A stretch of 29,137 bases of DNA, from NCBI GenBank assembly GCA_012841465.1, contig DUUS01000114.1, forward strand, positions 1-29,137. The letters are read 5' to 3'. The notes under the pieces were generated by a model. That model had not been told where the DNA came from and did no database searches. It saw only the letters and a list, made by a program, of their open reading frames with translations. The DNA comes from Mollicutes bacterium. Its GTDB lineage: Bacteria; Bacillota_I; Bacilli_A; RF39; UBA660. The number at the start of each line of letters is the position of its first letter. Position 1 is the first letter of the stretch. Shown here piece by piece: positions 18,176 through 23,970 of this stretch. Made by a program: the position numbers and the translations under genes.

Positions 18176-20347
18176 ATGTACGGAGAAGTATTAGTTGAAT
18201 ATGGAGTTAAAACATTAGATAAAACATTTACTTATATAATACCTAATCATTTAAAAGATAAAATTCAAATAGGTATGAAAGTAATTGTTCCTTTTGGCAC
18301 TTTAAATATAAATGGTTTTTTAATTAATATAAAAGACAGTACTGAAATAGAAGAATTAAAAGAAATTATTTCAATTAGTAATGAAGAATTTATCTTAAAT
18401 GAAGAATTACTAAAGCTCGGAAAATATATTAAAGAAAAAACTCTTTGTACTTTAATAACAGCATATAATACTATGTTTCCTAGTAGTTTAAAAATAAAAA
18501 CCATTTCGAGTAATTATAATATATATGATACTTTTTTAAAAATTAAAGATAAAGAAAAAGTTAAAATGTATATAAATGAACATAAAAGAGCTTTTAAAAA
18601 GATTGAACTTTTAAATAAATTAATTAATAATGAAAAAGTAAATAAAAAAGAATATAACTCATCTTTAGTAAAAGAACTTCTTGATTTAAATTTAATCTAT
18701 GAAGAAAAAATATCTAAATATAGAATAAATAAAGAAAAAGAATTTGAAGAAAAAGTAACCTTAACTAAAGAGCAAGAAGAAGTAATAAAAAAATTCGAAT
18801 TTAATAAAAGTAAAACTCATTTATTATATGGAGTAACTGGATCAGGCAAGACTGAAGTATACATGCACTTAATTGAAAAAGTAATAAAAACAAATAAAAC
18901 AGCGATTATTCTGGTACCTGAGATTAGTTTAACAACTCAGATAGTAAATAGGTTTTATAAACGATTTGGAAATAATGTTGCCGTATTTCACAGTGGTCTT
19001 TCTAAAGGAGAGAGGCATGATGAATATAAAAAGATCTATAGTGGTGATGTAAAAATAGTTGTCGGAACAAGAAGTGCAATATTTACTCCGATGAAAAACA
19101 TTGGCATAATCATTATTGATGAAGAACACAGTACTAGTTATAAACAAGATAATAATCCTAGATATAATGCAATCGATATAGCAATTAAAAGAAGTGAGTA
19201 TCATAACTGTCCACTACTTCTTGGAAGTGCAACCCCAACACTTGAAGCATTTGCTAGAGGGCTCAAAGGTGTTTATAAATTACTAGTAATGACCAAAAGA
19301 GCGACAAATGCACCTCTTCCTAAAATTCATATTATTGATATGAAAGCTGAAGCTAAAAAAAGCAATATGATTATAAGTGATGCTTTAAACAAATTAATAA
19401 TTGAAAAATTAAATAAAAAAGAGCAAATAATGTTATTTTTAAATAAAAGAGGATTTGACCGTATAATAAACTGTAGGTCTTGTGGTTTTACTTTTAAATG
19501 TAAAAACTGTGAAATAAGTATGATATATCATAAAACAAGTAATAACTTAAGATGTCACTACTGTGGATATACTCTACTTAAACCAGAGGTATGTCCAGAA
19601 TGCAGAGAAGATGCTCTATCATTTTATGGTCTTGGCACTGAAAAGCTTGAAGAGCATATAAAAGAGACTTATAAAGATGCTAGAGTAATAAGAATGGATA
19701 CAGATACTACAACTAGAAAAGATTCATATGAAAAGATTATTACTAAAGTTGAAAATGAAGAGGTTGACATTATTATCGGAACTCAAATGATATCTAAAGG
19801 CTTAGACTTTCCTAAAGTAACTTTAGTCGGAGTTATAAATGCTGATGAATCGCTAAATATACCTGATTTTAGAAGTGGTGAAAACACCTTTAGTTTACTT
19901 GCTCAAGTATCAGGAAGATCAGGAAGAAGTGATATACCAGGAGAGGTAGTAATTCAAACCTTTAATCCAGATAATGACACTATTAACTTTGTTAAAGAAA
20001 ATAATTATCAAAAACTATTTAATTATGAAATGCATATTAGAAGAATATTAAAATATCCTCCATACTTTTATTTAACAAGTATACTTGTAACAAGTAGAGA
20101 TTATGAAAAAGCATCAACTGAAGTTAATAAAGTTTCTAATTATTTAAATAAAAATATAAAAGATACTATAGTACTTGGACCTACTACTGCAAGTATGTTT
20201 AAAATAAATAATGTTTATAGATTTCAAATTATTTTAAAATATAAAGATTTTAATAATATAAAAGAGCCTTTAAAATATATAGATAATATATATAGCTTAA
20301 ATAAAGATGTATCTCTAGAAATAGATGTAGACCCTAAAAGAATTTAG
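18176..20347 (+). CDS. priA: Primosomal protein N' (replication restart helicase)
   Basis: GVTGSGKTEVY, LVPEISLT, IIDEEH, two CxxC pairs (CRSC/CKNC, CHYC/CPEC), GTQMISKGLDFP, QVSGRSGR. ATG 18176 follows GGAGG. Confidence 0.96.
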   Translation: MYGEVLVEYGVKTLDKTFTYIIPNHLKDKIQIGMKVIVPFGTLNINGFLINIKDSTEIEELKEIISISNEEFILNEELLKLGKYIKEKTLCTLITAYNTMFPSSLKIKTISSNYNIYDTFLKIKDKEKVKMYINEHKRAFKKIELLNKLINNEKVNKKEYNSSLVKELLDLNLIYEEKISKYRINKEKEFEEKVTLTKEQEEVIKKFEFNKSKTHLLYGVTGSGKTEVYMHLIEKVIKTNKTAIILVPEISLTTQIVNRFYKRFGNNVAVFHSGLSKGERHDEYKKIYSGDVKIVVGTRSAIFTPMKNIGIIIIDEEHSTSYKQDNNPRYNAIDIAIKRSEYHNCPLLLGSATPTLEAFARGLKGVYKLLVMTKRATNAPLPKIHIIDMKAEAKKSNMIISDALNKLIIEKLNKKEQIMLFLNKRGFDRIINCRSCGFTFKCKNCEISMIYHKTSNNLRCHYCGYTLLKPEVCPECREDALSFYGLGTEKLEEHIKETYKDARVIRMDTDTTTRKDSYEKIITKVENEEVDIIIGTQMISKGLDFPKVTLVGVINADESLNIPDFRSGENTFSLLAQVSGRSGRSDIPGEVVIQTFNPDNDTINFVKENNYQKLFNYEMHIRRILKYPPYFYLTSILVTSRDYEKASTEVNKVSNYLNKNIKDTIVLGPTTASMFKINNVYRFQIILKYKDFNNIKEPLKYIDNIYSLNKDVSLEIDVDPKRI

Positions 20348-20359
20348 TTTTGAAAAAAG

Positions 20360-20478
20360 CACAGAAAGGGTATTATTATTACCCTTCTGTGACAAAATTA
20401 AAACTGAGGAAAAGTAATTTTTTTGTAACCAAAAAAGTAAAATAAAAAGTGGTTGTTTCCAAAATTGAAATAACCACT
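20360..20478. repeat. Two strong hairpins downstream of priA (probable terminator region)
   Basis: cacagaaagggta/tacccttctgtg (20360-20391, one bulge) and agtggttgtttc/gaaataaccact (20449-20478, one G:U on plus). Confidence 0.65.
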
Positions 20479-20513
20479 AATTTATCTTATCTGAAAACTT
20501 AATTATAATTTTC

Positions 20514-20541
20514 TTTACATTAGAATATAATTTGATATAAT
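20514..20541 (+). promoter_or_regulatory. Promoter of the glycyl-tRNA synthetase leader
   Basis: TTTACA (20514-20519), 16 bp ending in TGa, TATAAT (20536-20541). Confidence 0.7.
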
Positions 20542-20555
20542 AAATACATAAGAAA

Positions 20556-20657
20556 AGCGATGACTTCTCTGGCAAAGAAAGAGCTATATAAATAATGAAG
20601 ACACTTAAATAGGGTGGAACCGCGGATGTTAGCCGCCCCTATATTAGGGGTCTTTTT
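20556..20657 (+). promoter_or_regulatory. Glycine T-box riboswitch (transcriptional) with an ultrashort Stem I
   Basis: Antiterminator AGGG-UGGAACC-GCGG-AUGUUAG-CCGC-CCCU (20611-20640); overlapping terminator CCCCU-auauu-AGGGG-ucUUUUU; specifier GGC at 20571-20573; located upstream of GlyRS. Confidence 0.9.
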
Positions 20658-20681
20658 AATTAAAAGAAAGAGGAAATATAA

Positions 20682-22049
20682 ATGGAAAAAATTACAATGG
20701 AAGAGTTAGTATCATACTGTAAGCAGTATGGATTTATTTATCAAGGAAGTGAGGTATATGGTGGACTTGCTAATACTTGGGATTATGGACCACTAGGTTC
20801 TAGACTTAAAAATAATTTAAAAGATGCTTGGAGAAAGAGATTTGTTCAAGAAAAGAAAAATAGTTATGAACTTGATTCATCTATTTTAATGCATCCTAAA
20901 GTATGGGAGGCATCTGGTCATGTGGATTCATTTTCTGATCCTTTAATTGATTGCAGAGAATGTAAAGCAAGACATCGTGTTGATAAATTAATAGAAGACT
21001 ATAGTAGTGAAGTAATTGCTGATAAATTAAATAAGGAAGAAATGAAAGAATTTATTTCTAGCAATAAAGTACCTTGTCCTAAATGTAAGAAGCATAACTT
21101 TACTGATATTAGAGAATTTAATTTAATGTTTGAAACCTATAGAGGAGTAACTGATGAAAATAAAAGTATTATTTATCTAAGACCTGAAAACGCTCAAGGA
21201 CAGTATGTTAATTATTTAAATGTACTGAGAACTATGAGAGCTAAACTACCTTTTGGAGTTGCTCAAATAGGTAAAGCTTTTAGAAATGAAATAACTCCTG
21301 GAAACTTTATTTTTAGAACAATTGAATTTGAACAAATGGAATATCAAACCTTTTGCAAACAAGGAGAAGATGAAGATTTATATAATTACTATAAAGAATT
21401 TGCTAAAAAGTTTTATCTTGATTTAGGTCTTCCTGAAAATAAACTTAAATTCCATGATCATGATAAACTTGCTCATTATGCCAAAGCTGCTTGTGATATA
21501 TTTTATGAGTTTCCTTGGGGATATGATGAAATAAATGGAACTCATAACCGAACTGATTATGATCTTAAAAGACACGAGGAGTATAGTGGTGAGTCATTTA
21601 TGTATTTAGACCCTGAAACAAATGAAAAATATATTCCCTATATAGTTGAAAGTACCTATGGAGTAGATCGAAGTATTCTTGCTCTTATTCATAATGCTTA
21701 TACTAAGGAAGAGCTTGAAAATGATACTAGAGAAGTACTTAAAATTCATCCTTTCTTAGCACCATATAAAGTAGGAGTACTTCCACTTGTTAAAAAATAT
21801 CATAGTGATAAAGCAAATGAAATATTTAATATGCTAAATAAACACTTTATGTGTTCATTCGATGAAACCGGCTCAATTGGTAAAAGATACCGTAGATGCG
21901 ATGCAGCTGGAACTCCATTTTGTATAACTATTGATGATGAGACAATAAATAATAATACTGTTACGATTAGAGATAGAGACACCATGGAGCAAATTACCTT
22001 AAGTCTTGAACAGGTTATTTCATATATTGAAGAAAAGATTAAGTTTTAA
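20682..22049 (+). CDS. glyQS: Glycine--tRNA ligase, alpha2 homodimeric type
   Basis: YGGLANTWDYGPLG, YLRPENAQG, GKAFRNEITPGNFIFRTIEFEQME, LAHYAKA, C-terminal anticodon-binding domain (SIGKRYRR..GTPFCITID). Confidence 0.96.
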   Translation: MEKITMEELVSYCKQYGFIYQGSEVYGGLANTWDYGPLGSRLKNNLKDAWRKRFVQEKKNSYELDSSILMHPKVWEASGHVDSFSDPLIDCRECKARHRVDKLIEDYSSEVIADKLNKEEMKEFISSNKVPCPKCKKHNFTDIREFNLMFETYRGVTDENKSIIYLRPENAQGQYVNYLNVLRTMRAKLPFGVAQIGKAFRNEITPGNFIFRTIEFEQMEYQTFCKQGEDEDLYNYYKEFAKKFYLDLGLPENKLKFHDHDKLAHYAKAACDIFYEFPWGYDEINGTHNRTDYDLKRHEEYSGESFMYLDPETNEKYIPYIVESTYGVDRSILALIHNAYTKEELENDTREVLKIHPFLAPYKVGVLPLVKKYHSDKANEIFNMLNKHFMCSFDETGSIGKRYRRCDAAGTPFCITIDDETINNNTVTIRDRDTMEQITLSLEQVISYIEEKIKF

Positions 22050-22098: not shown

Positions 22099-23133
22099 AT
22101 GATTAATCAAATGAATGAAATGTTATTAGGATATCTTGTGCAAGATGAAAGTGTAGTTATAAAAAAGGAAAATAATTATAAATACTATTTATCAAAGCAG
22201 GACAAATAGTATTTAAAATATGCAGGAATGAAATTAGATATAGTTAATAATTTACATTATTTTTCAGGAAAAAAAGATAAAAATAAAAATTATGATGTTG
22301 ATTATTTTTTAAATAATATAGAAAGAAATATTACTAATTTATATCCTTATTTAGATGATATGATAATTAAAGGAATGGATATTTTAATTGAAAATAATGG
22401 CTATTTAGAAAGCGATGGTTTTCCGATTAAGGCGGCAATGTTTTTTCATGAGTTTCATCTGGCTTATATATCTAACACAGATGAGAAAATTGTTATCCAT
22501 TGTCCAGATGAAGTTTTAAAAGTATTTACTAAACTTAGAAAAACTAGTAAACCAAATGAAACCTTTAATCATGTTAATGATTTTGTAGCTGGAATGATGT
22601 CAGTTTATCAATTGGTACCAACTTCTATACTACATGAAATGTATATTACAAACTATAAAAAAATTAATTATAAAAAATTTGAACAAATAATGTTGACATA
22701 TTCTTTAATAGAAAACTATTATGTTGTTACTGCTGATGAAGAAGGAACTTTATATTGTACAACAAAAATCAGTGAAAAAGATATTTTTGAAAACTTAAAT
22801 ACCGATTATGAATATCGAATCTTTACTAAAGAAGAAATTGATATGCTGATAGATAATACTTATATTTATAGTTTAGATTCAACTAAGAAATTCATTGAAT
22901 TTTTAGAAGAAGAATTTGAAGTGGATGATGGCTTCATTGAAAGATTTCTAAATTATGAAGTTTCTAACTATATTGGTCTTCTTGAGGATGGGGAAAATGC
23001 GGATAATTTTCTTAAAAATGTAATAGATGAACTATTCGAAGAAGATGAAGATTTATATAAACAAATTAAATTTTATTTAGATAAAATTTATAAAGAATAC
23101 CCTAAAAGAGAATTTAATGGTCATGTTAAATAA
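22099..23133 (+). pseudogene. Hypothetical protein (~344 codons) interrupted by one in-frame TAG at 22207-22209
   Basis: ATG 22099 has a strong AGGAG RBS, runs 36 codons to TAG, then continues in frame (YLKYAG) into the 301-aa ORF at 22228, whose ATG lacks a properly spaced RBS. The body weakly resembles proteins that usually end in a SEC-C motif, which is absent here. Confidence 0.65.
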
Positions 23134-23217: not shown

Positions 23218-23970
23218 GTGGTTGTCAAAAGTGATAAAAAAGCAATCTTAATTATAATAATATTTCTTTTAAATGTTTTTTTAATTGGTTTAACCCTATA
23301 TTTTCTTGGACCAAATGAACCTAAAGAGCCGAAAGATATAGTTGCTGAACTTGTTGATTTTTCTGAATGTCAAAGTAAGAGTTATCAGCAAACTTGTTAT
23401 GATACTAAATATATTAATAATAAAACTTATAATATTATATATGATAAATTAAAAGTAGATAATAAAAGTAAAAGTCTAGTTGGGGCTTCACTTCAAGTAA
23501 ATGATGCGGTTTTAATTAATGAAGATGATTTAGTTTATCATATTGAAAATCATATTTATTTTACTGAAAGTACTATAGTACTTGCGGTATATGAACCTAA
23601 AGTTAAAAATGTTAAAGTAATGATCTTTGATTATAAAGGTAATAAATTAAAAGAAATATATATTTTAGATGATGAGAGCGATATTGTTGTTAAGAGTTTT
23701 AAAGTTAAAGGTGATAAAATTATCTTTAAAGGTCAGAAGAACTTAATAGATAATGCTGTAATACTTTCGACAGAAGGTGATACAAAATTTATTTTTGAAA
23801 ATGCTGATCTTTGTAAGCAAATAGATGTATTAAAATTGAAGGATAGTGATTTATATTCAGCTGAATATGAACTTAAATATGTAACCGATAAAAGATTTTC
23901 GAGAATTAAAAAAAGACCGAATACAGAAGTTTATATTAAAGAATATAAGGATGAAATAAATTGTGACTAA
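23218..23970 (+). CDS. Hypothetical membrane-anchored exported protein (4 Cys)
   Basis: N-terminal TM helix and beta-rich body; GTG start after AAGGA. Confidence 0.8.
   Translation: MVVKSDKKAILIIIIFLLNVFLIGLTLYFLGPNEPKEPKDIVAELVDFSECQSKSYQQTCYDTKYINNKTYNIIYDKLKVDNKSKSLVGASLQVNDAVLINEDDLVYHIENHIYFTESTIVLAVYEPKVKNVKVMIFDYKGNKLKEIYILDDESDIVVKSFKVKGDKIIFKGQKNLIDNAVILSTEGDTKFIFENADLCKQIDVLKLKDSDLYSAEYELKYVTDKRFSRIKKRPNTEVYIKEYKDEINCD

Follow-up and report, generated by a model that had tools for sequence, protein, structure and literature searches.

Can a T-box riboswitch that lacks most of the parts with which such leaders bind their tRNA still sense uncharged tRNA and control transcription? The question is raised by the leader of glyQS, a glycyl-tRNA synthetase gene in the window (the whole stretch of 29,137 nucleotides of DNA that was analysed). 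According to the published picture, transcriptional T-boxes need the elbow platform of Stem I to capture tRNA quickly enough, an ultrashort Stem I belongs to translational T-boxes, in which truncated Stem I barely binds tRNA without the essential Stem II, and an antiterminator by itself hardly binds tRNA if Stem III is absent (PMC7583486). As a counterpoint, the version in the window lacks all three parts treated there as needed, namely the elbow platform, Stem II and Stem III. The comparative evidence presented below suggests, with a probability of roughly 0.78, that this leader is a glycine-specific transcriptional T-box riboswitch of reduced architecture, for which a mechanism is proposed.

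The glyQS leader and its miniature Stem I

The window belongs to a genome (G000) of 0.95 Mb that is 91% complete. The glyQS product is a class II synthetase with a tRNA-synt_2b core and an HGTP anticodon-binding domain. The promoter, Stem I, antiterminator and gene are arranged as follows.

20514-20541, forward strand: sigma-70-type promoter with the -35 TTTACA at 20514-19, a 16-nt spacer and the extended -10 TGaTATAAT at 20533-41 (consensus scan)
20556-20585, forward strand: miniature Stem I (letters, K-turn aligned to the Rfam consensus, covariation)
20556-58 with 20583-85, forward strand: C-stem of the miniature Stem I, AGC/GCU (sequence; covariation)
20559-61, forward strand: GAU bulge of the K-turn, followed by G.A/A.G of 20562-63 with 20581-82 (sequence; Rfam consensus letters)
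C20564 with A20580, forward strand: C.A mismatch above the K-turn (sequence)
20565-68 with 20576-79, forward strand: NC-stem UUCU/AGAA, 4 bp (sequence; covariation)
20569-75, forward strand: terminal loop CUGGCAA, 7 nt (sequence)
20571-20574, forward strand: specifier GGC (Gly) with the 3' purine A20574, preceded by U20570 (sequence; homologues)
20609-20642, forward strand: T-box antiterminator AUAGGG-UGGAACC-GCGG...CCGC-CCCUAU (AAAUAGGGUGGAACCGCGG...CCGCCCCUAU; RF00230 alignment, covariation)
20609-14 with 20637-42, forward strand: helix A1 (covariation)
20615-21, forward strand: bulge UGGAACC (RF00230 alignment, high posterior probability)
20622-25 with 20633-36, forward strand: helix A2 (covariation)
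20670-73, forward strand: Shine-Dalgarno GAGG of glyQS, unpaired in every fold computed
20682-22049, forward strand: glyQS-type (alpha2) glycyl-tRNA synthetase, 455 aa (domains tRNA-synt_2b and HGTP_anticodon)

The promoter matches the consensus at 11 of 12 positions, with the extended -10 TG present, and transcription is predicted to start near 20547-20549; 15 nt lie between the -10 and the K-turn element. Further upstream, priA ends at 20347, and two hairpins (20365-20387 and 20448-20478) are found between it and the promoter, the second being terminator-like, with 12 bp in its stem and a weak T-rich run after it. Since the conserved promoter stands just before the element and this hairpin precedes it, no long Stem I is expected to form from the upstream DNA. 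The contig of one public run starts exactly at the hairpin 20448-20478. In three metatranscriptome contig sets, coverage is limited to 20744-21147, inside the coding part of glyQS, and the public run with coverage over the leader itself is probably DNA. The organism is present in anaerobic-digester samples. Downstream of glyQS, the open reading frames 22228-23133 (301 aa) and 23218-23970 (250 aa) gave no Pfam match.

The K-turn letters GCGAUGA...GAGC agree with the RF00230 consensus, so that a kink is predicted. Folded as a single sequence, the miniature Stem I reached -2.8 kcal/mol with z = +1.2, which is weaker than the shuffles, and it was not supported by single-sequence folding of either the 5' part or the whole leader. 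Because the energy model is unable to score a K-turn or a 4-bp stem, the miniature Stem I was judged by comparison.

At the gathering score of RF00230 (93 bits), no T-box was detected in the window. A permissive threshold gave an alignment over 20505-20643 with 27.4 bits, in which the aligned parts are the K-turn letters and the antiterminator only; the low score results from the deletion of 88 Stem I positions and of the Stem II region. The distal Stem I (AG bulge, distal loop, elbow platform) falls into those 88 positions and is absent. Stem II with its S-turn and the IIA/B pseudoknot are absent as well: 23 nt separate Stem I from the T-box, and the alignment deletes both parts. Five other members of the class described below scored 35.6-50.9 bits against the cut-off of 93, so that such leaders are missed by genome annotation.

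ARAGORN predicted one tRNA-Gly in this genome, with the anticodon GCC (G000:C14:3991-4065), the 3' end GCUUGC-U-CCA (U73) and the anticodon loop UUGCCAA. GGC of the leader is therefore complementary to GCC, and UGGA to U73-CCA. Moreover, CUGGCAA of the Stem I loop has the same layout as the anticodon loop of this tRNA, both having seven letters with a U before the triplet and an A after it. Altogether 26 tRNA genes were found in the 91%-complete genome, and tRNA-Gly(UCC) was not among them.

An earlier note on this DNA had proposed a glycine T-box with a K-turn, a specifier in the terminal loop and neither distal Stem I nor Stem II. The Stem I parts, specifier and antiterminator which it described are present letter by letter, and the glycine assignment agrees with the GlyRS gene downstream, the tRNA-Gly(GCC) of the genome and the homologues. 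Both absences were borne out by the deletions in the RF00230 alignment and by a promoter that leaves no room, and the match of UGGA to U73-CCA, likewise claimed there, by the tRNA 3' end.

Homologues in a small-genome family of Bacilli

GlyRS genes were taken from 40 relatives and their leaders compared. Relatives from the same family have the same leader in many genomes, with stems that differ yet are complementary and with loops carrying GGC or GGA. A pattern scan over one genome per species (GATGA, 4-8 nt, TGGMR, 30-56 nt, TRRGGTGGAACC) returned at least 120 stretches; after GC-rich chance matches had been discarded, about 100 AT-rich elements remained among the matches listed. Nearly all of their sources are MAGs that carry the label uncultured Bacilli and derive from the gut of rabbit, human and mouse or from the rumen, the other labels being Mycoplasma sp. 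CAG:472, Clostridium sp. CAG:524, Firmicutes bacterium CAG:884 and uncultured Tenericutes. The set resembles the reduced Bacilli of the RF39 type.

Among the matches listed, 94 hairpins were parsed, comprising 57 different stem sequences of 3-5 bp with loops of 6-10 nt. U-GGN-R was present in all 94 (GGA in 81 and GGC in 13; next base A in 89 and G in 5), this first homologue set having been selected with a pattern in which UGG and GGUGGAACC are fixed. Within GAUGA, the A, the G and the final A never vary among the 108 sequences from which a covariance model (R1) was built; 105 matches were then realigned. Twenty lower-scoring R1 matches from other genomes, which were not chosen by the pattern, still have a Gly codon in the loop, with slightly varied bulges. 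Two side cases among the mini Stem I elements are L207 (G117), with a GGU specifier in the loop GAUGGUAAA, and L209 (G072), with the 5-nt loop AGGCA.

All four pairs of the mini-stem changed on both sides in the 105 homologues, one of them occurring as GC in 46, AU in 24, GU in 16 and UA in 15; likewise, the C-stem pair under the K-turn is UA in 51 and AU in 41. Paired cells reached 95.6%, against 79% in shuffles and 43-55% (about 46%) with the partners slid by 1-3 columns, in an alignment that is itself fitted to the model. Covariation was seen in the C-stem, the mini-stem, Stem III, A1 and A2. RNAalifold missed the mini-stem on a MAFFT alignment, which was attributed to mis-registration by MAFFT; hence the R1 model and the realignment were used.

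Within 60 nt upstream, 102 of the 109 homologues have a promoter that agrees with the consensus at 9 or more of 12 positions, its -10 mostly ending 12-13 nt before the C-stem. Since 36 mononucleotide shuffles also reach 9/12, the fixed spacing of the promoter is the stronger signal.

Of the 119 genomes sampled from the window's family, 105 gave R1 matches at E <= 1e-6, about 88 of them scoring at least 67 bits and some of the weaker ones being 3' halves of ordinary T-boxes; 67 of the 73 genera in the whole search gave matches. In a class-wide sample, 13 of 15 genomes of this family matched R1, and the 27 other families, represented by 135 genomes, gave no match. The genomes of the family are of about 1 Mb. 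Judged from these alignments, the mini architecture is conserved in over 100 species of one small-genome Bacilli family. R1 matches of 50-63 bits in relatives were considered as mini T-boxes for other amino acids and rejected, almost all of them being 3' halves of long-Stem-I T-boxes.

More distant relatives (L021, L036, L037 and L041) carry an ordinary long-Stem-I glycine T-box, and inside the family G070 retained a long Stem I whose internal loop contains GGA, which fits an origin of the mini class by loss of everything above the specifier. In one relative, the element before glyQS (L175, G088:C2:46595-47200, reverse strand) is degenerate: its Stem III and helices can still be made out, but the sequence of the bulge is CAGAAUC and there is no Stem I. 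It looks like a T-box in decay. Several relatives (L013:1550-2077, reverse strand; also L014, L015, L017 and L020) have a gene for a LOG-family protein (Lysine_decarbox, PF03641) of 175 aa between the glycine T-box and glyQS, a position that appears to place it under glycine-tRNA control. This gene is absent from the window.

A second T-box of this build is encoded elsewhere in the genome of the window.

G000:C44:8515-8633 (L007:1501-1619), reverse strand: tyrosine mini-Stem-I T-box, 55 bits with RF00230

It has a K-turn, an AGGA/UCCU stem and the loop CCUUACAAC; Stem II is deleted, but the element does have an IIA/B-like part, Stem III, a bulge reading UGGU and a terminator of the enclosing type. 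Downstream lie a dUTPase and a class I W/Y synthetase (dut-tyrS), and the tRNA-Tyr(GUA) of the genome has A73. Threonine (ACA) was considered as the specifier, UUACA fitting both codons, and was rejected since the operon is dut-tyrS. The relatives of this T-box in the genus keep UUACA in 7- to 9-nt loops on covarying stems, with their own promoter just upstream. The earlier note had suggested searching related genomes for the same architecture and had expected the loop codon to switch with the amino acid; the architecture was found in most of the sampled family genomes, and the UAC-loop T-box before dut-tyrS, in the same genome and genus, is such a switch. Of the seven full-length long-Stem-I T-boxes of the genome, six have the IIA/B element and no Stem II according to the Rfam alignments.

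Terminator layout and the place of Stem III

The terminator of a classical T-box takes its 5' strand from the 3' strands of A1 and A2 (PMC7583486). Five further features bear on how the leader in the window is laid out.

20586-20608, forward strand: linker without a Stem III hairpin (folding; comparison with homologues)
20594-20600, forward strand: purine run AAUGAAG in the linker (sequence)
20597-20608, forward strand: 5' strand of the lower terminator stem (folding; comparative layout)
20635-20651, forward strand: small overlapping hairpin GCCCCUA/UAGGGGU, then CUUUUU (-10.0 kcal/mol)
20644-20655, forward strand: 3' strand of the enclosing terminator, pairing with 20597-20608 and running into the U-run 20653-20657 (-21.3 kcal/mol fold)

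The earlier note had assigned the terminator to a hairpin that overlaps the 3' strand of the antiterminator, and this assignment did not hold. The small hairpin at 20635-20651 (-10.0 kcal/mol) is weaker than the antiterminator (-11.4 kcal/mol), specific to the window and not conserved in relatives, whereas the conserved terminator encloses the antiterminator in a fold of -21.3 kcal/mol. Genus relatives keep the lower stem with compensatory changes (GACAC/GUGUC, GACUC/GAGUC, GAGAC/GUCUC), and the small hairpin is missing in them.

Across the mini class, 87 of 109 minimum-energy folds join the tail before the U-tract to the segment 5' of the T-box, the remaining 22 being mixed and in some cases shortened by the U-tract rule used for cutting. 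The longest uninterrupted helix of this 5' segment with the tail averages 10.3 bp, compared with 5.9 bp for shuffled tails and 5.1 bp for the tail with the 3' strand of the antiterminator, and these helices comprise 92 different sequences. As far as the compared leaders tell, the conserved terminator of the mini class is one that encloses the antiterminator and does not compete for its 3' strand. Since the tail pairs with the segment 5' of the T-box, the antiterminator would be retained in the terminator hairpin and form its upper part.

For most members, the strand with which the tail pairs consists of the Stem III loop and the 3' half of that stem, typically CUUCUAGAAU with AUUCUAGGAG, so that the competition is between Stem III and the lower terminator stem. 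These members have GAUUCUUCUAGAAU (Stem III) where the window has the hairpin-less linker, and their Stem III is flanked by RRRxG...AA. The RRRxG-Stem III-AA motif is part of the discriminator (Zhang 2020, PMC7583486). Stem III is present and covarying in ~90% of the class members, and about a tenth are without the hairpin (L012, L013, L016-18, L024, L027, L028, L043, L059, L161 and L172). In the window, AAUGAAG was retained and contributes to the 5' strand of the lower stem, and 20586-20608 forms no hairpin. The reduced architecture described in the earlier note thus stands with respect to the missing elbow platform and Stem II; the loss of Stem III in the window had been overlooked there, and most members keep that stem.

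The enclosing wiring is also found in T-boxes of the same genome (L001, L002, L005, L007 and L008), which include the tyrS mini T-box along with several whose Stem I is long. Among relatives (L162-L181), too, ordinary T-boxes with a long Stem I mostly have an enclosing terminator that pairs with Stem III. Being shared by long-Stem-I T-boxes, this wiring is a trait of the lineage and not of the mini class. The classical layout, with the A1/A2 3' strands reused as the terminator 5' strand, is clearest in the long-Stem-I relatives L036 and L037.

The terminator helix ends in the U-run 20653-57, and the GAGG at 20670-73 lies 13 nt past it; homologues likewise have a U-tract and then a free AGGAGG. 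This arrangement points to a transcriptional output of the terminator type, as the earlier note had it.

Proposed mechanism, rival readings and meaning

In the proposed mechanism, transcription would start a few nucleotides before the K-turn, and the 4-bp helix set on the K-turn would show GGC in a 7-nt loop resembling an anticodon loop (U-GGC-A), where it could pair loop-to-loop with GCC of tRNA-Gly. If this tRNA is uncharged, its free U73-CCA end would pair with UGGA of the antiterminator bulge. As there is neither a distal Stem I nor a Stem II, recognition would depend on the two pairings just described. If no uncharged tRNA is present, the stretch immediately 5' of the T-box would pair with the segment before the U-run, turning the antiterminator hairpin into a long terminator, and transcription would stop before glyQS. 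With uncharged tRNA, the 5' segment would be held in the discriminator fold, the lower stem would stay open and RNA polymerase would read through. The segment to be held would be Stem III with its purine flanks in most members, and only AAUGAAG in the window. We infer the dependence on tRNA, the loop-loop contact and the manner in which the lower stem is blocked. The weakest link of the mechanism is this block in the genus without Stem III, where the tRNA-binding helix would persist in the terminator form.

Complexes of tRNAs with complementary anticodons and RNA loop-loop kissing contacts are comparison systems for the first contact. They are alike in having a 7-nt loop with a U before and a purine after three complementary bases, here CUGGCAA against UUGCCAA, and by analogy they indicate how three base pairs might suffice. 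The furthest-reaching version of the proposal would be a natural transcriptional T-box that senses uncharged tRNA by two short contacts only (loop/anticodon and UGGA/UCCA), without elbow platform, Stem II and, in this genus, Stem III, and whose terminator wraps the tRNA-binding helix rather than dismantling it; we would give it about even odds.

The leader could also be a relic of a decaying T-box, left as a constitutive attenuator or an inert remnant after tRNA sensing was lost. The small genome of 0.95 Mb, the loss of Stem III in the genus, the clearly degenerate element before glyQS in G088 (L175) and the need for the missing parts according to the literature (PMC7583486) would suit such decay. 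It is nevertheless unlikely, given that U-GGN-R, the bulge and the helices were kept through compensatory changes in more than 100 species and 67 of the 73 sampled genera, and that a relic would retain neither a Gly codon in the loop nor a UGGA matching U73. A protein or a second RNA contact, for instance a K-turn binder or GlyRS, might instead replace the elbow platform and Stem II in a helper-dependent T-box; the strict conservation of the K-turn is in line with this, as are the T-box K-turn binders YbxF and YlxQ of B. subtilis (table, PMC7583486). However, an L7Ae-family K-turn binder (PF01248) was not found in the 91%-complete genome, even though every T-box there kept its K-turn. No candidate partner gene is linked either, the LOG-family gene of the relatives being absent from the window, and we consider a helper quite improbable.

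Two further readings concern the limits and the output of the element. The start site being a predicted one, transcription could begin further upstream and form a canonical T-box with a long Stem I from about 20400-20585. This has very little to recommend it, because RF00230 aligns no distal Stem I there (88 positions deleted), the terminator-like hairpin 20448-20478 is followed by the 11/12 promoter, and 102 of 109 homologues have a promoter equally close to the element. Equally slight is the chance of a translational switch in which the T-box gates the ribosome-binding site, as in the actinobacterial ileS leaders. Ultrashort Stem I has so far been known from translational T-boxes (PMC7583486), but here the helix ends in the U-run, the GAGG 13 nt beyond is unpaired in every fold, and in homologues too the U-tract is followed by a free AGGAGG. 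The reading as a transcriptional glycine T-box of reduced architecture is thus retained.

Among characterised systems, the closest are the glyQS/glyQ T-boxes of Bacillus subtilis, Geobacillus kaustophilus and Oceanobacillus iheyensis (RF00230), which share with the leader the Gly specifier followed by a purine, the basal K-turn, the lack of Stem II and of the IIA/B pseudoknot, the UGGAACC bulge matching U73 and the transcriptional output; their linker and RRRxG-Stem III-AA are kept by most members of the mini class. In contrast to them, the mini class has no C-loop, AG bulge or distal loop (elbow platform), its specifier stands in the terminal loop and is usually GGA rather than GGC, its terminator encloses the antiterminator, and the genus of the window has no Stem III hairpin. 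The ultrashort-Stem-I T-boxes of actinobacterial ileS (Sherwood et al. 2015, per PMC7583486) are alike in the specifier in the apical loop and the missing elbow platform. However, they are translational, sequester the Shine-Dalgarno sequence and keep Stem II and the IIA/B pseudoknot, whereas the leader in the window has neither of the latter and a terminator output.

A 2024 survey of glycyl T-boxes reported missing K-turns and an extra Stem II and did not report a short Stem I (PMC11404447). In TBDB, sequences under 100 nt were removed, and the short-Stem-I model was built on Actinobacteria (TBDB paper). No description of minimal, short or CPR T-boxes of this kind was found in the literature searched, older T-box catalogues lying outside that search. 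The comparison supports regarding the element as a new architectural variant of the T-box family.

For this small-genome family of Bacilli, the finding means that the sole glycyl-tRNA synthetase gene stands behind a leader without elbow platform and Stem II and, in the genus of the window, also without Stem III. With the enclosing terminator, the switch would operate no longer at helix A1 but at Stem III or its purine string. If the proposal is true, the leader would be the smallest known RNA (about 100 nt) to read a tRNA for its identity as well as its charging state, and parts held essential for transcriptional T-boxes would be dispensable. A working leader would thereby define a minimal sensor of uncharged tRNA, with bearing on the evolution of T-boxes, on the capacity of G/C-rich codon-anticodon pairing and on the design of synthetic tRNA sensors.
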